Origin: an uncultured archaeon
Lineage (GTDB): Archaea; Asgardarchaeota; Thorarchaeia; Thorarchaeales; Thorarchaeaceae
Assembly (NCBI GenBank): GCA_964648855.1
Contig: CAZYLT010000021.1
Coordinates: forward strand, 10,218-42,217
Direction of reading: 5' to 3'
Length of the DNA stretch: 32,000 nucleotides
Below the pieces are notes generated by a model, which saw nothing but the letters and a program-made list of their open reading frames with translations, did not search any database and had not been told where the DNA came from. A program made the translations under genes and the position numbers. Below, in pieces: positions 1,072-28,170 of this stretch (the first letter of the stretch is position 1; every line of letters begins with the position of its first letter).

Positions 1072-1601
1072 ATCCTTCCCAACTGATGTCAATTTCCTTC
1101 TAATGATTTCCGGCTAGCGAGTAAATAATATGCGACACCAAATATTTGTCCTTTCATCCACTGACAATTTCAAGCACTCTGCTATTTCAATTTCATTTGA
1201 TTCATGTATCGCCATGTGTATACACAAATCGTTGCTCCAAGGGGATTCAACGTCATTATGATGTAAACAAAAAGCACAGAATCATTCCGAAATAACCTAT
1301 CTATAGGTCAACCTCTGAGCTCAATTCCTTTCGAGTTGATATCAAAGGGGGATGCTGTCCATTGAATGCATTGTTCCTCTCATTTTAGCAAATCACAACC
1401 TATGTTTTACTGAACCCTCAACTCTCTTTATCACCTCATTCTTCTTCATGTAATTCACTCTCCGTTTGTAAACAACGTTCCCCCTTCTTTTCTTCATATA
1501 TTGCCCACTGTAAAGATAATCTATCTGCTAGTTTTGGGAGGACTGGCCACCCCGAAACATGATCCAGCCTTCCACCCCGGTCTGCCACCAGAGCCGCCTT
1601 T

Positions 1602-1615
1602 GCAATATCCTTAAA
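1602..1615 (+). promoter_or_regulatory. BRE/TATA-like motif GCAATATCCTTAAA, copy 1, ~30 bp upstream of the tRNA 5'-half copy
   Basis: The exact 14-mer recurs at 1881-1894. Spacing to 1645 fits an archaeal tRNA promoter. Confidence 0.5.
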
Positions 1616-1644
1616 TTTCCCCAGCGTTCTGCCGCTCGTGAACT

Positions 1645-1680
1645 GCGGCCGTAGTCTAGTTTTATGATAGAAGCCTTCCA
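1645..1680 (+). pseudogene. tRNA-Gly(TCC) 5' half, ending at position 37
   Basis: GCGGCCGTAGTCTAGTTTTATGATAGAAGCCTTCCA versus the intact gene GCGGCCGTTGTCTAGGGGCTAGGATTCCACCCTTCCG; non-tRNA sequence follows. Confidence 0.85.
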
Positions 1681-1880
1681 CTGAATTGTCCGTCATAGCG
1701 GGGTCTGGGCCCTGACTCAAGCATGACAGAACCCTTCCACTGATACGTCCCTTCTTTCACCTGAAGTTGTCGCAAAGAAGATGCCACCCTTCCACTAATA
1801 TGTCGCATTGGAATATCGATTGAGGACTGTTCAATCTATGATCCAGGCCTTCCACCGATATACCCAGAGAGTTCACTCTA

Positions 1881-1894
1881 GCAATATCCTTAAA
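1881..1894 (+). promoter_or_regulatory. BRE/TATA-like motif GCAATATCCTTAAA, copy 2
   Basis: Identical to 1602-1615. Both copies follow a repeat variant reading CCTTCCA-CC rather than CCTTCCA-CT. Confidence 0.45.
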
Positions 1895-1992
1895 ACAAGT
1901 GTTCAGACACCCTTGACTCCAGAGGGACAATCGGGATTTGGGTCGAATCGATATGATCCAACCCTTCCACTGATCGTCCTTTCTAGACTCCC

Positions 1993-2067
1993 GCGGCCGT
2001 TGTCTAGGGGCTAGGATTCCACCCTTCCGAGGTGGTAGCCCGGGTTCGATTCCCGGCGGCCGCACCA
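1993..2067 (+). tRNA. tRNA-Gly(TCC), intronless, CCA encoded
   Basis: Acceptor stem GCGGCCG/CGGCCGC; D stem GTCT/GGAT; anticodon arm CCACC-CTTCCGA-GGTGG; T arm CCGGG-TTCGATT-CCCGG; ACCA end. Confidence 0.97.
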
Positions 2068-2084
2068 CAATCCTCTTTCTTCGG

Positions 2085-2187
2085 ATGAAATTAGTAGGGG
2101 AGTGAACCCCGATTTCGGACTTCTGTGTTCTGCCCTTCTCTTGCCCAGTGTCGCCACCAACTCTAGGAGCCACCCTAGAGAAAGCAA
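2085..2187. repeat. Conserved non-coding arm downstream of the tRNA 3' end, copy 1 (candidate element end or TnpB omega-RNA scaffold on the - strand)
   Basis: Colinear blocks ATGAAAT..GAGTGA..ACTT..GTGTTC..CCCTT..AGTGTCGCCA..CTC..AAGCAA are shared with 12011-12108. Hairpin CTCTAGG-agccac-CCTAGAG at 2161-2180. Confidence 0.65.
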
Positions 2188-2202
2188 GAGCTTCGGCCAC
2201 GA

Positions 2203-3879
2203 TCATTGAGACACGGTCCCTCCTGTAGCCCGAGCTTCTTTCTCCTGCTTCAACCCAGCCGCATCGTTACCGGAAGCAGAGAGAGTTTCCACAGCTCTTC
2301 CCACGGCGCTATCATCATCGCCATCCCCGCCTTCGTCACCAAAGTCGAGGATACTCAACTGAGTGGGGCGAACCACCGCGGACTTGCTCTGGCCTGATGC
2401 CTGACCATTCTGAGCAAGTTCGGACTTCTGCTTAGCGGAACGTGTCCGTCTCACAGCCTTCGGGGCTGAACCCAACCTCCGCTCGGGAGTGGCCCACCGC
2501 CCTAGTCCGTTCTCATTCGTAAGTGACGGAATGAGCGTAATCAATCGACGCGCGATATTCAGGGAACCGTTTCGGTCGGCATTGGTGCGGAACCCGCAGG
2601 TGTGACAGATAAACAGAGATTGCTTTGGTCGAACACCTCGATGCCCGCACTTCCAGCAAGTGATGGAGGTCCAGTTCTCAGGGACCGCATGAAACCGACT
2701 CCTCTTCCCCTCAGTCGGCCACCCGCGCTGTTCGAGCCCGTGCTTGAGCGTGCGCGTCACCCGCCCAAAGCTCCAGCGATGCACCATCCCTCTGAATTTC
2801 CTTCCCTTGTAGTTCCCCTTTCGAGCAGTATTGCGGATGCCCTTGACCCGGCCAATGGCAACGTACACCGTCCATTTCTCCGAGAGCTCCTCAATATAGG
2901 AGATGAGCCTGCTGACGGTTAGCCTGTCGTACTCCTTGGAGACCTGTTCCCGCTTGGAGCGAAGGCCTCTGAGTCTCGCAGCTATGTTATCATGCCGCTC
3001 CTGGTCCGCCTTACAGACTTCAAGTTCCCGCTGCAGGTCGGCGAACCGGTCATCATACTCCTTCATGAGCCTGACTTTATGCTCCTGCACAAAGTACCGG
3101 GTCTCCGAGACTTTGGATGGCGTCACCAGCGTTGTACACACTGCACGGTTGATCCCTAGGTCTATCCCGAGCACCGCCGGAGGAAGGTCCGACTCAGCCT
3201 CGACCTCTGGCAATCGCACAGCAACAGCCGCCCACCACTTCCCGTTCTTATCCGTGAACACCTGCACAGACTTCTCATCTCCTCTGTCCAGCTGCTCAAG
3301 GTGGAAGGGTGAGGTCTTCAGCGGCACCGTCAGCCTATCATGCACGCGCCGTCCCTCAGGAACCGAGTCCAGCGAGTCCCTTAGCTCAAGCCACCAGGTT
3401 GCCACAGTGCTCTTATGGCGGACCAGCTCAGCCCGATACGGTATGAAGATCCGCCTCGGAATCCGCTGGCTCCGATTCACCTCACTGGGCCGTGATGCCT
3501 TCCGCCACCGCTTCTTCCTCAATGCCAGATAGCTCTCGTAATTCGCAACAGCCACCTTTCGGCACTCACTCAGCTCATTAGCCGATATTCTCGGAAACTG
3601 CTCCTTCAGGTCATGCTCTACCTCAGGACGTTCTTCTTGCCCCTTGGTCACCTTCAGGGCCGTCATGGTCATGGCATGTAGCCTGTTCTCGTCGATCCGG
3701 TCCTTGTTCTTCCCACGCAGCAACTCATCCTCGTTCTGCTCGATGATTCCAAAAAATGCACGAATGACTCTGGTGTCCCTCCCAACCATCTGACGCAGGC
3801 GCTTACGTGCCCTATCGGTCATCATCTCCCAGTTCAGGGGGATCTTGACCGTTATCACAGGTTCTTGGGACTTTGCCAT
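2203..3879 (-). CDS. tnpB: TnpB-like RNA-guided RuvC endonuclease with a rearranged catalytic site and a long C-terminal tail
   Basis: RuvC-I VLGIDLGINR; RuvC-II region YVAIGRVKGIR; VPENWTS; Zn ribbon CWKC...CHTC; RuvC-III NADRNGSLNIA. Probable start is MAKSQ at 3879 (the ORF track starts at 3897). Confidence 0.9.
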   Translation of the reverse strand: MAKSQEPVITVKIPLNWEMMTDRARKRLRQMVGRDTRVIRAFFGIIEQNEDELLRGKNKDRIDENRLHAMTMTALKVTKGQEERPEVEHDLKEQFPRISANELSECRKVAVANYESYLALRKKRWRKASRPSEVNRSQRIPRRIFIPYRAELVRHKSTVATWWLELRDSLDSVPEGRRVHDRLTVPLKTSPFHLEQLDRGDEKSVQVFTDKNGKWWAAVAVRLPEVEAESDLPPAVLGIDLGINRAVCTTLVTPSKVSETRYFVQEHKVRLMKEYDDRFADLQRELEVCKADQERHDNIAARLRGLRSKREQVSKEYDRLTVSRLISYIEELSEKWTVYVAIGRVKGIRNTARKGNYKGRKFRGMVHRWSFGRVTRTLKHGLEQRGWPTEGKRSRFHAVPENWTSITCWKCGHRGVRPKQSLFICHTCGFRTNADRNGSLNIARRLITLIPSLTNENGLGRWATPERRLGSAPKAVRRTRSAKQKSELAQNGQASGQSKSAVVRPTQLSILDFGDEGGDGDDDSAVGRAVETLSASGNDAAGLKQEKEARATGGTVSQ

Positions 3880-3891
3880 ATCACTCGCCAC

Positions 3892-4004
3892 ATCCATTTA
3901 AAGTTCTGACATATCCAGTCAGTGGAGTTCACTCAACTCCTTATGCGTCAGAGGCTGTTTTGAACTCCTACAAATTGTATGTATGAATCCATTTAAAGTT
4001 ATGA
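3892..4004 (-). promoter_or_regulatory. Duplicated TATA-containing motif ATCCATTTAAAGTT(C/A)TGA (3892-3909, 3987-4004) flanking two hairpins
   Basis: Exact 14-bp direct repeat 95 bp apart, reading TTTAAAT on the - strand. Hairpins CTGAC/GTCAG (3906-3922) and GGAGTT/AACTCC (3924-3940). Confidence 0.55.
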
Positions 4005-4134
4005 AGCAATTTTAGCAAATTAATATTTGAATAATATTAGAACGCCTTTAACAGTGAAATATTCAACTAGACAACCTTAAGTAGTCGTTTGATATACTAA
4101 CAAGAATCACAGTAGTTTTTGACGTTAGAGGGCA

Positions 4135-7100
4135 GTGATTGACGTGTCTGGAACGAGGGGGCCGAGGAGCCGACCCCTACCTAAACATCCAAACCGGGTG
4201 CAGGTGGAGGCGATGCTGACAGGGCTGTCCACGCACGTCTACCTGCAGGGTACCCTCAAGAACACCGTCACAGCCCACTACCATGAGAGCTCCCGGTCAA
4301 TCCTCAAGCGGGGAAAGGAGGCGTACTACATCTCCAAGGCCGTGGGGAACCCTGACTTCTCCCATGTTACAGCTACCGAGAACAACATCCGGAAGAACGG
4401 GCTGGACCTGCTGGAGGAGAACGCCGCAGCCTACGGGTGCACCGAGACCAAGCGGGCAAGAAAGTGGTACGAGGAGGTGGGCCCGCTTAACCAGCGACTG
4501 AATGCCGGGGGTGCGGCTCTGAGGGAGTGCGCGGTGCTGGACTATCCCATGGGGCAAGGAAGACAGTTGATTGCTGAAGATGGGAGCGAGACCGGCTACG
4601 GATACCACGGTGACTCTAGGGCGCCGGCCTACAACCTCATCCACAAGACACTCCCTGAACTTGACTTTGTGGACTCCGTGCGATATCACATCCAGGTTCT
4701 CAATACGGACTGCTACATCTTCGAAGTTCCGGTGAGGGACACCAGGCGATACAGCAACCTGTTCCTGCTGCGAGCTCGGAAGTATCTAGACAACATCTAC
4801 ACCGAACACAAGTACGGAGAGAAGGGGTTCCGGAAGGGAACGTTGCGAATCCTGCGTGAGTTGCGTAACGACATCCGCAGACACTACAACACCCGAAGCG
4901 AAGACAGCCCAACGGTAAGCTCCAGCATCACGTATCATCAACCGACGTTCTCCATGCAGTTCTTTCGAGATGCGGTAGCGGAGGCCAAGAGGGCGGGAGT
5001 GGATCCACTGGCTACGGGCGAACTTGAACGCATCCTGAGACCCGGCACCAACATCATTCCGGATGCAAAGGGAAAACTCCGCCCCTGTCTGCGAACGGAG
5101 GATGTTGAGCACATCTGGAAGATGGCAACCGACCGAGGGAGGAAGATAGGCTCTATAGTTCATGGTCATATCACAGACCTGTTCGACAGCTTCAGGAGTG
5201 CAGGGGACGCCATCCGCAATGATGACCGAGATAGAATCAACCGGGATACAGTCAGAATAGTAGCGGAACTACCCCTGGAAACAAAGCTGGGGAAGGGTAG
5301 GGCTGATCTTACAGTCTTTCGGCGAGAGGTCGCGCCGCAGCGGCTCAAGACCTTCTATCGCCCCCAGATGGTGGTGGAGATCAAGACCCGTTCAGCCTTC
5401 GACTTTTCTTTGGGTTATGATATCAGACCTTCCGAGTCCAGAGCCAGATACGGCAAGCCTCCTCGTGTGGTCCCAGAGTTTGAGGTCGAGCCTCGTCCGC
5501 TCACCAAGAAGGAATGGGAGGCGGTAGTGGATGAGTTTCCAAGGCAACAGACTCAGCAGCAGCTCAAGGCATATGCGGATGCTCTCTCGGAGAGCTTTGC
5601 TTCGGTCTCTGGAACTGAGGATTGCGCTCCCGTGATCAAGGCAACGCTGCTTATTGACCCCTCCACCAGCAACCCTGAGAGCCGCAAGACAATCAGAGCC
5701 CTCATACTCCATGCCCTTGACACCATCCAGACAGAAGGTAAGATTGAGGAACGAATGGTCTTCAAGGTGGACAAGCAGCCAGCTGACACAGAGATGGTTC
5801 TTGTCGTCCATAAACAGAACTACTCGCAAGATAATATAGGTGAAGTTGTTCCACCCGAGTGGCGGCCTGCATATGACCCACTCTTTGGTTCAGGGTCGCG
5901 CAAGATGAGATTCATCCTCCACCTATCGGCGGCTTCTATAGGCTCATCAGGAAAGTCAGCCGCCAGAATCTCTGGCTATCATCATGGTATGCGTCTACTT
6001 TATGAAATTGTTCACAATAAGCCTCAGACTGATCTCGTGTGGTTCGACCTAGCTGATGATTTTCAATATGGACCGCTTGCCGAGGTACGACTGCGACTGA
6101 GAACACCCGATGAGGAGCATGACTCACCTGAAGAATTGTACGGACTGTTTGAGAGAATCAGATTCGAGGGGCTATTCTCTGAGATTCAGCGATATCTGTA
6201 TGAGGATGGTTTCCTTCCAGACATTCGGCACCATCTTGGTGAACCCAGAGACTCAGATCGCATAATCATTGTGAGCGGATGGGATCGGATACGAGAGTCC
6301 ACGCCAGCTCCATATCGGAAGAGACTGAATATGCTATTGGGCCATATCCTTCGCCAAATTCCAGATATTGAGAAGACAACCATCCTGTGGTTTGACCTTC
6401 CTGTCAGATATGAACGTGTGTCATCAGCCTATAGAATGCGTTGTTTCTTACCCTTCTATGATAACTCTCTCCTGAGGGGTGAGGTTACAGAGATGATGTG
6501 GAATCTCCCTTGTCCTCCTCCGGATGTCTTGGACCCGGATGAGTGGTACTTGCCCGTCATTCCAAAGACTCCCATGTTTGACGATATAAGAACAATAATC
6601 AAGCAGAAGGCTGACGGTTTCGAGGTCTCACTTGCTCATGTTCCACCCCTAGCCAATTGGGCAGACAAGTTTCGCACGGAGGACTTCAGCAATAAGGGAC
6701 CTCCACCCGTTTCAATTGATAAGGCAGTTCCTCGATTGCAGATAAGGAACAAAATCAAGGGGTTGGCTCTCTCCCTTCTCCCATGGCTGGCAGAGCTTCA
6801 TCCTGGGCAGATCGTGTCACTTGAAAACGATACAAAGCGGGCAGGAGAATTCGTTCGGTCCTATGTATCCAGTCAGCTACCCAGCTTGGATGATATGGGG
6901 GTTGTATCAGAGCACAAGGCAAGAACCACCCCACAATCAAACGAACTAGACCAAATCAGATTTAGAACATGTGTTCCAAGAACAGGCAAATCATTCCAGC
7001 AAATGACTGCCGGAAAAATCAACACTCACCGCTTGTACCGTAGTGAGGAGGAAACCAGAACCAAACGACGTCCATCTCACCCTATTGTTACATCGCTATC

Positions 7101-26163: not shown

Positions 26164-28170
26164 ATGGAAACACTTCGACACAATGGCATCCTCGTACTAC
26201 GACCCGATGATGAACCAAAACTATCAGTCTATATCAAAGGAGAAGAAGTGCCGCTAGATAAGAACCAGGGAGAAATGGCAGTCGCATGGGTAAAGAAGCT
26301 CGGAACAAAATATGTTGAAGATCCGACATTCATTGAGAATTTCCTAGATGACTTCAGTCAGGCTCTGGGATATAATCCAATTCTTAGTCTAGATAGTATT
26401 GATTTCTCTCCTGTTATCAAGTATGTTGAGTCGGAGCGTGAACGAAAAGATAACATGACCAAGGAGGAGAAAAAAGCGGCGCGCGAGGCTAGAAAGGCCA
26501 AACGTGAGGAATTGAAGGAGAAATATGGGTATGCAGAAGTTGATGGCGAGAAGATGGAGCTCAGTACATATCAGACTGAGCCGTCGAGCATATTCATGGG
26601 CCGGGGTGAACATCCACTTAGAGGACGTTGGAAGGAGGGCGCAACTGAGGCTGACATAACACTGAATCTTGACCCCGATGCACCTAGGCCAGAGGGGGAT
26701 TGGGGTGAGATTGTATGGAAGCCTGATTGTCTCTGGATTGCCAAATGGACAGACGAACTAACTGGCAAAAACAAGTACATCTGGCTTCATGACAGTACTC
26801 CTATCAAGCAAGAGCGCGAGGAGGCAAAGTTCGATGAAGCACTTGCGCTTGAAAAGAGAATTGATGAAATACGGGAACACATCGCAAAGGGACTCCACTC
26901 TGAAGATCCCAAGCGTAGAGAAGTAGCTGCGGCTTGCTATCTCATTGATAACCTGAGCCTGAGAGTTGGCGACGAGAAAGATGCAGATGAGGCAGATACC
27001 GTTGGTGCTACTACTCTGCGTGCCGAACATGTGACCTTCAAAAAAGACTCGATTGTGTTTGATTTCTTGGGGAAGGACAGTGTTCCTTGGCATAAGGAAC
27101 TAGTCTTGGAACCTGATGTCTATGATGTGTTCAGAGAGCTCTATGATAATGCCGTTGACAGGATTGAGTCATACAAGGCTCGTAAGGGGAAGACGAGCAA
27201 GGCGGACCCAAAGAAATTGGCACAGATATTTCCCAACATCGGAAGCAGCCATGTGAATCGTTTCCTTAGTGAAGTCATGGACAACCTTAGCGCGAAGATG
27301 TTTAGGACATACCATGCTACAGTCACATTCAGAGATGAAATAAAGGATGCAAAGGTCAAGAAGAAGGATCCAGATTTCATCAAAAAAGAAGCAGTAGAAC
27401 GAGCAAATCTTGAAGTCGCCCGAATAATGAACCACACAAAACAGGAAACGAAAGGTTGGCCAAAGAGGGAAACGCGCTTCAAGGAACGGGTTAAGAAGGC
27501 AGAAAAGAGAATTCAGAAGGCCCTGAAGGCAGTAAAGGACAAAGAAGAGCGACTGAAGAAACGTAGAAAAACTGAGAGAGCGCGGATAAAGAAAAAGAAC
27601 AAGCTGATTGAAAAGCAGAAAGGCGTGGTTGACCGGCGCTGGGAGAAAGTAAAGGAGTACCGCACAAAACGGGATAGCGCGAAGGAAACGTGGGATCGCG
27701 CTCGTGAAGAGAAACGAAAGATACGTGAGAGCAGACGCAAATCAAAACGTACTAAGAAAGAACGGTTAGAAGAAGCACAAGAGAAAATCGACCGGACAAG
27801 AGAATGGTGGGAAAAAGCAAAACAACGCGTTGCTGATGCCTACGAACGATATGAGAAAAGCAAGGCTATTCTTGAGAAACGGAAGAAATCGCTTGAAGAA
27901 ATGAAGAAGACTGCAGAGGAACGAATAGAGCGAAGAAAAGAGATTGTCCAGAATGCGAAGGAACGAGTGAAGAAGGCAGAATTGGCTAAACAGAAGATAG
28001 AAGTTGATTGGGCGTTGGCCAAGTCCAGTCGTGTCTGGAATCTGAATACGTCTTTGAAGTCGTATATTCACCCGAAAATAGTCTACAAGTGGTGTAAGAA
28101 GGTTGATTATGACTGGAGAAAGGTCTATTCCAAAGCTCTGGAGAGAAAATTCGACTGGGTAGAAGACTGA
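26164..28170 (+). CDS. DNA topoisomerase IB (eukaryote-like) with an extended coiled-coil linker
   Basis: FMGRGEHPLRGRWK; catalytic pentad LRVGDEK, FLGKD, KMFRTY, MNH, TSLKSYIHP. Confidence 0.95.
   Translation: METLRHNGILVLRPDDEPKLSVYIKGEEVPLDKNQGEMAVAWVKKLGTKYVEDPTFIENFLDDFSQALGYNPILSLDSIDFSPVIKYVESERERKDNMTKEEKKAAREARKAKREELKEKYGYAEVDGEKMELSTYQTEPSSIFMGRGEHPLRGRWKEGATEADITLNLDPDAPRPEGDWGEIVWKPDCLWIAKWTDELTGKNKYIWLHDSTPIKQEREEAKFDEALALEKRIDEIREHIAKGLHSEDPKRREVAAACYLIDNLSLRVGDEKDADEADTVGATTLRAEHVTFKKDSIVFDFLGKDSVPWHKELVLEPDVYDVFRELYDNAVDRIESYKARKGKTSKADPKKLAQIFPNIGSSHVNRFLSEVMDNLSAKMFRTYHATVTFRDEIKDAKVKKKDPDFIKKEAVERANLEVARIMNHTKQETKGWPKRETRFKERVKKAEKRIQKALKAVKDKEERLKKRRKTERARIKKKNKLIEKQKGVVDRRWEKVKEYRTKRDSAKETWDRAREEKRKIRESRRKSKRTKKERLEEAQEKIDRTREWWEKAKQRVADAYERYEKSKAILEKRKKSLEEMKKTAEERIERRKEIVQNAKERVKKAELAKQKIEVDWALAKSSRVWNLNTSLKSYIHPKIVYKWCKKVDYDWRKVYSKALERKFDWVED

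Follow-up and report, generated by a model that had tools for sequence, protein, structure and literature searches.

In Asgard archaea, TnpB nucleases associated with aCas1 have been reported as Cas1H-Asgard-1 and -2, and for these elements a 'hypervariable region' adjoining a conserved motif was suggested as a possible guide, with no mention of tRNA in the main text (Altae-Tran et al., 2023, PMC10691335, citing Makarova et al., 2020). The same study describes transitions from TnpB to Cas12 in which an array lies downstream of the effector, with duplication of omegaRNA segments as its proposed origin. Type V CRISPR arrays are believed to have arisen in this way, and Cas1 from a transposon integrase; natural intermediates with both features are scarce. 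Here we analyzed a 32,000-nt stretch of a Thorarchaeaceae genome (assembly GCA_964648855.1, contig CAZYLT010000021.1, positions 10,218 to 42,217 of the forward strand; hereafter the window), which carries an aCas1-TnpB element and, upstream of a tRNA-Gly(TCC) gene, a periodic array (1559-2030). The array is probably a guide library of this element, in which a split omegaRNA together with several stored guides would drive the replacement of tRNA alleles. The support for this reading is all comparative and comes from related genomes: motif identity, target match, self-avoidance, conservation, linkage and covariation can be read from the sequences. Since the locus brings together a protein of Cas1 fold, a TnpB whose catalytic residues are intact and an array built of the element's own end motif and its targets, both ideas of origin become testable in one system. 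Our search, in which journal coverage was incomplete, found no literature on tRNA targeting by aCas1-TnpB or on such an array, and the tie between arrays and single tRNA guides through the omega-terminal motif is a result of the present analysis.

The element belongs to the aCas1-TnpB group. As in the published members, a giant Cas1-fold protein lies beside TnpB in an Asgard host (Thorarchaeota), a GTTCACTCA-type motif (2099-2107, minus strand) is located downstream of tnpB, and the pair is present in multiple copies, with four occurrences in this genome and aCas1 homologues in 53 of the 86 genomes of the family; none was found in viral contigs with the query used. TnpB (2203-3897, minus strand, 564 aa) has a rearranged RuvC domain with the D of GIDLG, the E of PENWTS and the D of NADRN, and this triad was intact in 17 of 17 TnpB rows linked to tRNA-Gly, which fall into at least three groups on a quick tree. 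The aCas1 protein (4135-8751, plus strand, 1538 aa) begins with a Cas1 catalytic fold: E82, E104, H170 and D180 are invariant across 53 homologues, and the predicted fold of the first 250 residues is that of the Cas1 catalytic domain (predicted local distance difference test score of 87). A structure comparison (VIA) gave Z 12.7 with a root-mean-square deviation of 3.7 over 178 aligned residues, the next fold scoring Z 6.4, and the 12 best rows were Cas1 or casposase entries (one untitled); the top 15 Foldseek matches were all Cas1, with E values of at least 0.003. The locus departs from the published description in that the hypervariable region is here the 3' strand of the terminal hairpin, while the guide lies further out, in a separate multi-unit array in this lineage.

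An earlier note on this DNA had proposed a CRISPR-like periodic array whose repeat joins a piece of tRNA to a constant non-tRNA motif, and all six units (u0 to u5), their spacings and the tRNA were found where it had placed them. Unit cores are located at 1568, 1674, 1733, 1788, 1848 and 1963, with a further core inside the tRNA at 2023, giving spacings of 106, 59, 55, 60, 115 and 60. The 11-nt sequence of core plus motif has five clustered matches (six across the window) against 0.75 expected, and none of 100 shuffles gave six, which excludes chance. With a position weight matrix (PWM) built from the array, the five main units score about 34 bits and the maximum elsewhere than on this contig is at most 19, so that the motif is confined to the array locus in the 3.1-Mb genome. 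The 17 nt of the repeat correspond to tRNA-Gly positions 21-37, as had been claimed, in u1 to u5, whereas u0 (1559-1583, minus strand) is of a different class, with a 16-nt tRNA-Gly segment and a different tail. What did not hold was the assignment of parts: copies of the 28-nt unit are 68-82% identical to each other, only about 11 nt of them being constant, and on the TnpB strand each unit reads as this motif followed by a 17-nt guide. The 17-mer is thus the variable, information-bearing portion and the motif of about 11 nt the true repeat.

The units u1 (1664-1691; motif 1681-1691, guide 1664-1680), u2 (1723-1750), u3 (1778-1805), u4 (1838-1879) and u5, which forms a long hairpin with its complementary arm (1926-1980), stabler on the minus strand, are all on the minus strand. 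The two long spacings of 106 and 115 are real, but no repeat is missing from them. Each contains a tRNA promoter composed of a B recognition element (BRE) and a TATA box, the first orphaned (1602-1615, plus strand) and the second the active promoter of the resident tRNA (1881-1894, plus strand); in addition, positions 1-15 of a displaced tRNA-Gly survive in the first as an orphan 5' piece (1645-1659, plus strand). The BRE-TATA motif precedes tRNA-Gly in array and non-array loci alike, usually 40-45 nt from the tRNA start, and units that follow a promoter lie 64-71 nt from the BRE, approximately where positions 21-37 of the former tRNA would have been. An open reading frame (ORF) at 1757-2206 (minus strand, 149 aa) overlaps the TnpB stop codon (ATGA) and is open in G031 too (185 aa). 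It was considered as a split integrase or shufflon and rejected, as the frame crosses structured RNA and, in its C-terminal half, lacks conservation in G031; it is probably read-through of structured RNA.

We identify the array motif as the end of the omegaRNA. At other aCas1-TnpB copies the consensus (A/C)TGACCTRTTT is present at 29 of 38 omega ends, mostly at a distance of 46-54 nt from a fixed anchor in the scaffold, and a PWM made from the array units alone finds it at ends not linked to tRNA-Gly (median 4.2 bits against -0.5 for shuffled sequence, p=1e-7). The terminal motif is missing or degenerate in cis at the Gly-linked copies (p=7e-5), where a tRNA gene stands in its place; in the window the omegaRNA body (2098-2330, minus strand, left end approximate) has an anti-repeat strand at 2105-2125 and lacks its own terminal motif in cis. 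Single-sequence folds, used because gaps made an alifold of the omega alignment uninformative, showed that ordinary ends, read on the TnpB strand, have one terminal hairpin, then the motif, then the flank. At the Gly loci, the free 5' hairpin strand is complementary to the unit motifs over up to 9-10 bp and in three sequence states (-6.9 kcal/mol for cognate against -5.5 for permuted pairs), and the promoter-proximal unit, which in the window is u4 with the stretch 1866-1879, pairs over an additional ~10 bp with the loop of the omega hairpin. Scaffold and motif change together by lineage, as GTTTC/GAAAC at ordinary ends, GTCC/GGAC, GTCGAA/TTCGA and a further state in G006. Five loci (L022, L024, L028, L103 and L186) have, immediately 3' of the tRNA, a degenerate version of the terminal motif in cis into which one base is inserted; it may be a self-targeting end that has been inactivated.

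The sequence that follows the motif also points to tRNA. The 17 nt flanking non-Gly omega ends matched a tRNA at 13 or more of 17 positions in 17 of 33 cases (control, 3 of 33; shuffles, 5%), and the base after the matching flank is A in 7 of 10, as in tRNA-Gly. Some of these flanks continue into a longer tRNA piece and are true insertion flanks; others end at 17 nt. The aCas1-TnpB family seems to have tRNA genes in general as its targets. In L072-L075, L083, L265, L273, L274, L276, L278, L287, L288, L291, L296 and L298, the omega ends have fragments of tRNA-Asp, Tyr, Arg, Leu, Thr or His beside them, on either strand. A second aCas1-TnpB copy (G000:C28, about 9880-10172) has a single cis 17-nt flank that matches the T-arm of tRNA-His at 14 of 17 positions, and an intact tRNA-His gene about 150 nt away differs at three positions, an arrangement of guide and resistant tRNA like that at the Gly locus.

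The guides match tRNA-Gly(TCC) alleles other than the one they are linked to. The per-position alphabet of the 17-mers mirrors that of 29 real tRNA-Gly(TCC) alleles; among 43 distinct 17-mers, 6 are identical to an allele of another genome (the u4 guide, for example, to that of G030) and 26 lie within one mismatch, above column shuffles (p=0.02 and 0.006). Units all differ from their own linked tRNA by more than one mismatch (p about 0.05), and a seed of at least 10 nt to the linked tRNA occurs in 1 of 19 loci against 4.2-6.2 expected (p=0.03 and 0.002). In the window the intact resident tRNA-Gly(TCC) (1993-2067, plus strand) is recoded; its G37, unique among the Thorarchaeota alleles seen, abolishes what would be an 11-nt seed match to u3, of all guides the nearest to it. 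Its anticodon stem differs from that of the displaced allele, of which the 3' part (positions 29-76) lies at 11924-11970 (plus strand), and the guide of u2 pairs with the anticodon-stem bases of this fragment at 5 of 5. Across loci, a unit pairs with the anticodon stem of the displaced 3' fragment in 8 of 11 (p=0.004-0.007, wobble allowed), and in loci with a displaced fragment the resident stem is never fully paired. The displaced 3' pieces start at positions 29-33 and overlap the unit by about 6 bp (positions 32-37). Of the orphan 5' pieces, roughly half terminate at a distance of 21-24 nt from position 38, the break of the one in the window being 22 nt from the predicted target-adjacent motif (TAM); a rearranged TnpB cleaves at 21-22 (PMC10530073). 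Stem variants numbered 19 in 62 loci for tRNA-Gly(TCC), 1 in 10 for Gly(CCC) and 6 in 17 for Gly(GCC), the two control sets being small and retrieved by a TCC query. The tRNA-Gly(TCC) genes of L008 and L010 carry a D-loop insertion near the predicted cut site, possibly a non-canonical intron.

The stretches of about 30 nt between units, which the earlier note took for unique foreign spacers, are hairpin arms and promoters. They gave no match in the host genome, about 300 fetched loci or the viral contigs of IMG/VR, and they are orthologous between genomes. The ~15 nt preceding each 17-mer form an imperfect complement of it, cognate pairs beating permuted ones even within loci, and the resulting hairpins of about 60 nt fold better on the TnpB (minus) strand, a modest effect that does not extend to every unit. 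Nor are the linkers remains of a simple decayed tandem duplication, the possibility raised along with the array: aligned with tRNA positions 1-20 they score no better than shuffles (12.1 against 12.5), with two exceptions. Between the window and L131, 50 of 51 positions of the 17-mers and 33 of 33 of the motifs are identical (guide plus motif 83 of 84, 99%), compared with 61 of 91 (67%) for the linkers and 84% for the adjoining coding block, which shows that the units are under purifying selection. Arrays do gain and lose units between strains: across the window, L131, G031 and G001, the only four arrays compared, distal units are shared and tRNA-proximal ones variable.

These observations can be joined in the following scheme. 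In ordinary copies of the family the omegaRNA would end in the hairpin and ~11-nt motif, after which comes a single guide that in many cases is a piece of a tRNA. In the lineage linked to tRNA-Gly, a tRNA gene that serves as a replacement would have come to lie within the terminal hairpin, splitting the RNA, so that the scaffold and anti-repeat strand remain by tnpB and the motif-guide units follow one another past the tRNA, on the same strand. A transcript from tnpB may traverse scaffold, antisense tRNA and array, or alternatively processed units may act in trans; one unit would pair with the scaffold and be trimmed to a mature guide while the remaining units fold away as hairpins. TnpB would then be aimed at positions 21-37 of tRNA-Gly(TCC) alleles with AG next to them and cut about 21-22 nt away, and repair, or integration by aCas1 if this protein is an integrase, would install the element with its resistant, recoded tRNA. 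This would extend to many alleles the retention logic of IS605 TnpB. The units probably originate as element-end/tRNA junctions at 37|38. On this scheme the Asgard aCas1-TnpB elements, so far uncharacterized, would gain an initial defined target, TAM and guide format, and the locus suggests a compact nuclease that is naturally multiplexed, as well as a natural drive that cuts and replaces an essential tRNA and would account for how unusually diverse tRNA-Gly(TCC) is.

Several points weigh against this scheme. The loci are mutually related, hence all p-values are too optimistic; the match to displaced alleles represents some five independent events and, with Watson-Crick pairs only, is not significant against two of three controls (p about 0.09). 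The start of the displaced pieces at positions 29-33 is not where TnpB would cut, and requires a second step, either duplication of 6 bp of the target or selection that disfavors a renewed cut. Covariation of scaffold and motif is chiefly between clades (within clades, p=0.02 and 0.18), and most units in the window pair with the scaffold over only 4-8 bp. The guides sit buried in hairpins, so that processing is needed; a separate minus-strand promoter was looked for and none was found; and L132 has the same TnpB and tRNA as L131 and no array.

A bolder version is that the Cas1-fold protein itself writes the units, inserting the element end beside the TAM of each new tRNA allele, that the array is thus an adaptive memory of alleles encountered, which TnpB reads with its omegaRNA split into tracrRNA-like and crRNA-like parts, and that the drive diversified an essential tRNA throughout an archaeal family, in effect an independent, living origin of a CRISPR-like system. 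We regard this as conceivable but doubtful.

An unlikely alternative is that the units act as DNA, as sites like the attC hairpins of integrons at which aCas1 binds or recombines so that cargo cassettes are gained and lost at the tRNA, with no RNA guide involved. The units are imperfect palindromes with a strand bias, as attC sites are; stacked cassettes in L141 each finish in a unit, a promoter and a tRNA 5' piece; identical u0-type sites delimit cargo blocks of 4.2 and 5.8 kb; and conservation would be expected of DNA sites as well. However, the units are intact and internal, with no hybrids at junctions, a DNA site has no need to avoid the resident allele or to covary with the omega strand, and no tyrosine recombinase was found in the 94.6% complete genome. 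That the units are inert scars, left where an element end inserted after A37 of an earlier allele and trimmed later, we consider very improbable. The unit format is exactly target plus element end, the units behind promoters stand about where the former tRNA's positions 21-37 would be, the overlap with the 3' fragment resembles a 6-bp duplication, and junction scars are probably the way units originate; against this stand the near-identity of guide and motif between the window and L131, the sharp 17-nt length, and the presence of u2 in L131, whose displaced allele differs, so that u2 predates this insertion. Least probable, to the point of being remote, is that the units give antisense or guide RNAs whose effect is on tRNA or on transcription rather than through DNA breaks, either by silencing rival tRNA-Gly alleles or by binding that leads to no cut: the minus-strand 17-mers are antisense to the anticodon arm within hairpins of ~60 nt, and self-avoidance would be equally expected, but the motif is the terminus of the TnpB omegaRNA, every Gly-linked TnpB keeps its RuvC residues and the locus accumulates broken tRNA genes.

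Three further candidates were rejected: C/D-box or TIGR units, as the ATGAT start is tRNA positions 21-25 and varies with the alleles, and no Nop-domain match lies nearby; a split (trans-spliced) tRNA, as the gene is there intact and the stems are not the same; and CRISPR-style duplication of the resident target, which would give units resembling the resident allele, the opposite of what is observed.

By the tests made, the element is not a CRISPR-associated transposon (CAST), a canonical CRISPR, an integron or a casposon. Casposons encode a Cas1-family integrase and integrate, also in tandem, at tRNA genes. The present element shares with them the Cas1-fold protein and the association with a tRNA gene, and differs in having no family B polymerase among its ORFs, no terminal inverted repeats that we could see, units that are not identical target duplications, and right-junction flanks that are not conserved. 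Canonical CRISPR arrays have near-identical repeats of about 23-47 bp and unique foreign spacers, neither of which is present here. Imperfect palindromes folding on one strand, as in attC, are present, modestly and not in every unit, but there is no single crossover site per cassette: u1 to u5 flank no genes and lie off the junctions, and only the u0 type bounds cargo. The att-targeting units of type V-K CASTs are truncated repeat-spacers (Hsieh & Peters, bioRxiv 10.1101/2021.02.06.429022). They resemble ours in joining ~13 nt of repeat end to a 17-nt tRNA-gene spacer with the effector upstream and no conserved sequence around the unit; here, however, there is no ordinary CRISPR array, several guides address the alleles of one tRNA, and a resistant tRNA is supplied. 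Of the V-K hallmarks, nuclease-dead Cas12k is contradicted by the intact triad, and a scan of ORFs within and near the element found no TnsB, TnsC or TniQ family of Pfam. In IS200/IS605 elements a guide derived from the element flank, as proposed here, lets TnpB cut the vacant site and thereby biases inheritance (Meers et al., bioRxiv 10.1101/2023.03.14.532601); those elements use one cis guide and a Y1 TnpA, whereas this one would combine an RNA in two parts, a library of stored guides and a protein of Cas1 fold. The rule of obligate mobile element-guided activity (OMEGA) TnpBs, a guide straight after the scaffold end in cis, holds for the non-Gly copies and not for the Gly copies, whose motif is in the array. 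The arrays of TnpB-to-Cas12 transitions also lie downstream of the effector; here the repeats are degenerate ~11-mers, the guides have self-type tRNA targets, and a tRNA gene stands between array and scaffold.

The layout of the locus is nested, with an inner element (about 1660-11923) comprising array, promoter, whole tRNA, TnpB, aCas1 and cargo within a broken earlier tRNA. About 20 loci carry similar arrays upstream of tRNA-Gly(TCC). Where the sequence available sufficed, in 55 loci, array and omega end occur together in 15, the array alone in 5, the omega end alone in 3 (two with variant units) and neither in 32. The corresponding block is 78% identical in G031, of another genus, and 84% in L131, with differing unit numbers; contigs from the same mats show units skipped or replaced, a weak observation since they contain unknown intervening letters. 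The cargo (8872-11924, plus strand) includes Mre11-like and Rad50-like genes, present in L134 also, which could assist the repair of self-made breaks.

An omegaRNA remnant of an older, outer element lies at 12025-12095 (minus strand), and u0 is probably part of this element. The 25-nt u0-type sequence occurs at contig positions 1855, 6013 and 11776, that is, also 5.8 and 9.9 kb upstream of u0 in the window. The two cargo blocks bounded by these identical sites (G000:C21:1855-11776) carry a prolyl oligopeptidase with FG-GAP and a nucleotidyltransferase with a NosD-like gene, and two of the sites have a common left flank of 260 bp. PF00589, the tyrosine recombinase family, was not found in the genome despite its tRNA-split islands, and a gene for a eukaryote-type topoisomerase IB is located at 26164-28170 of the window.
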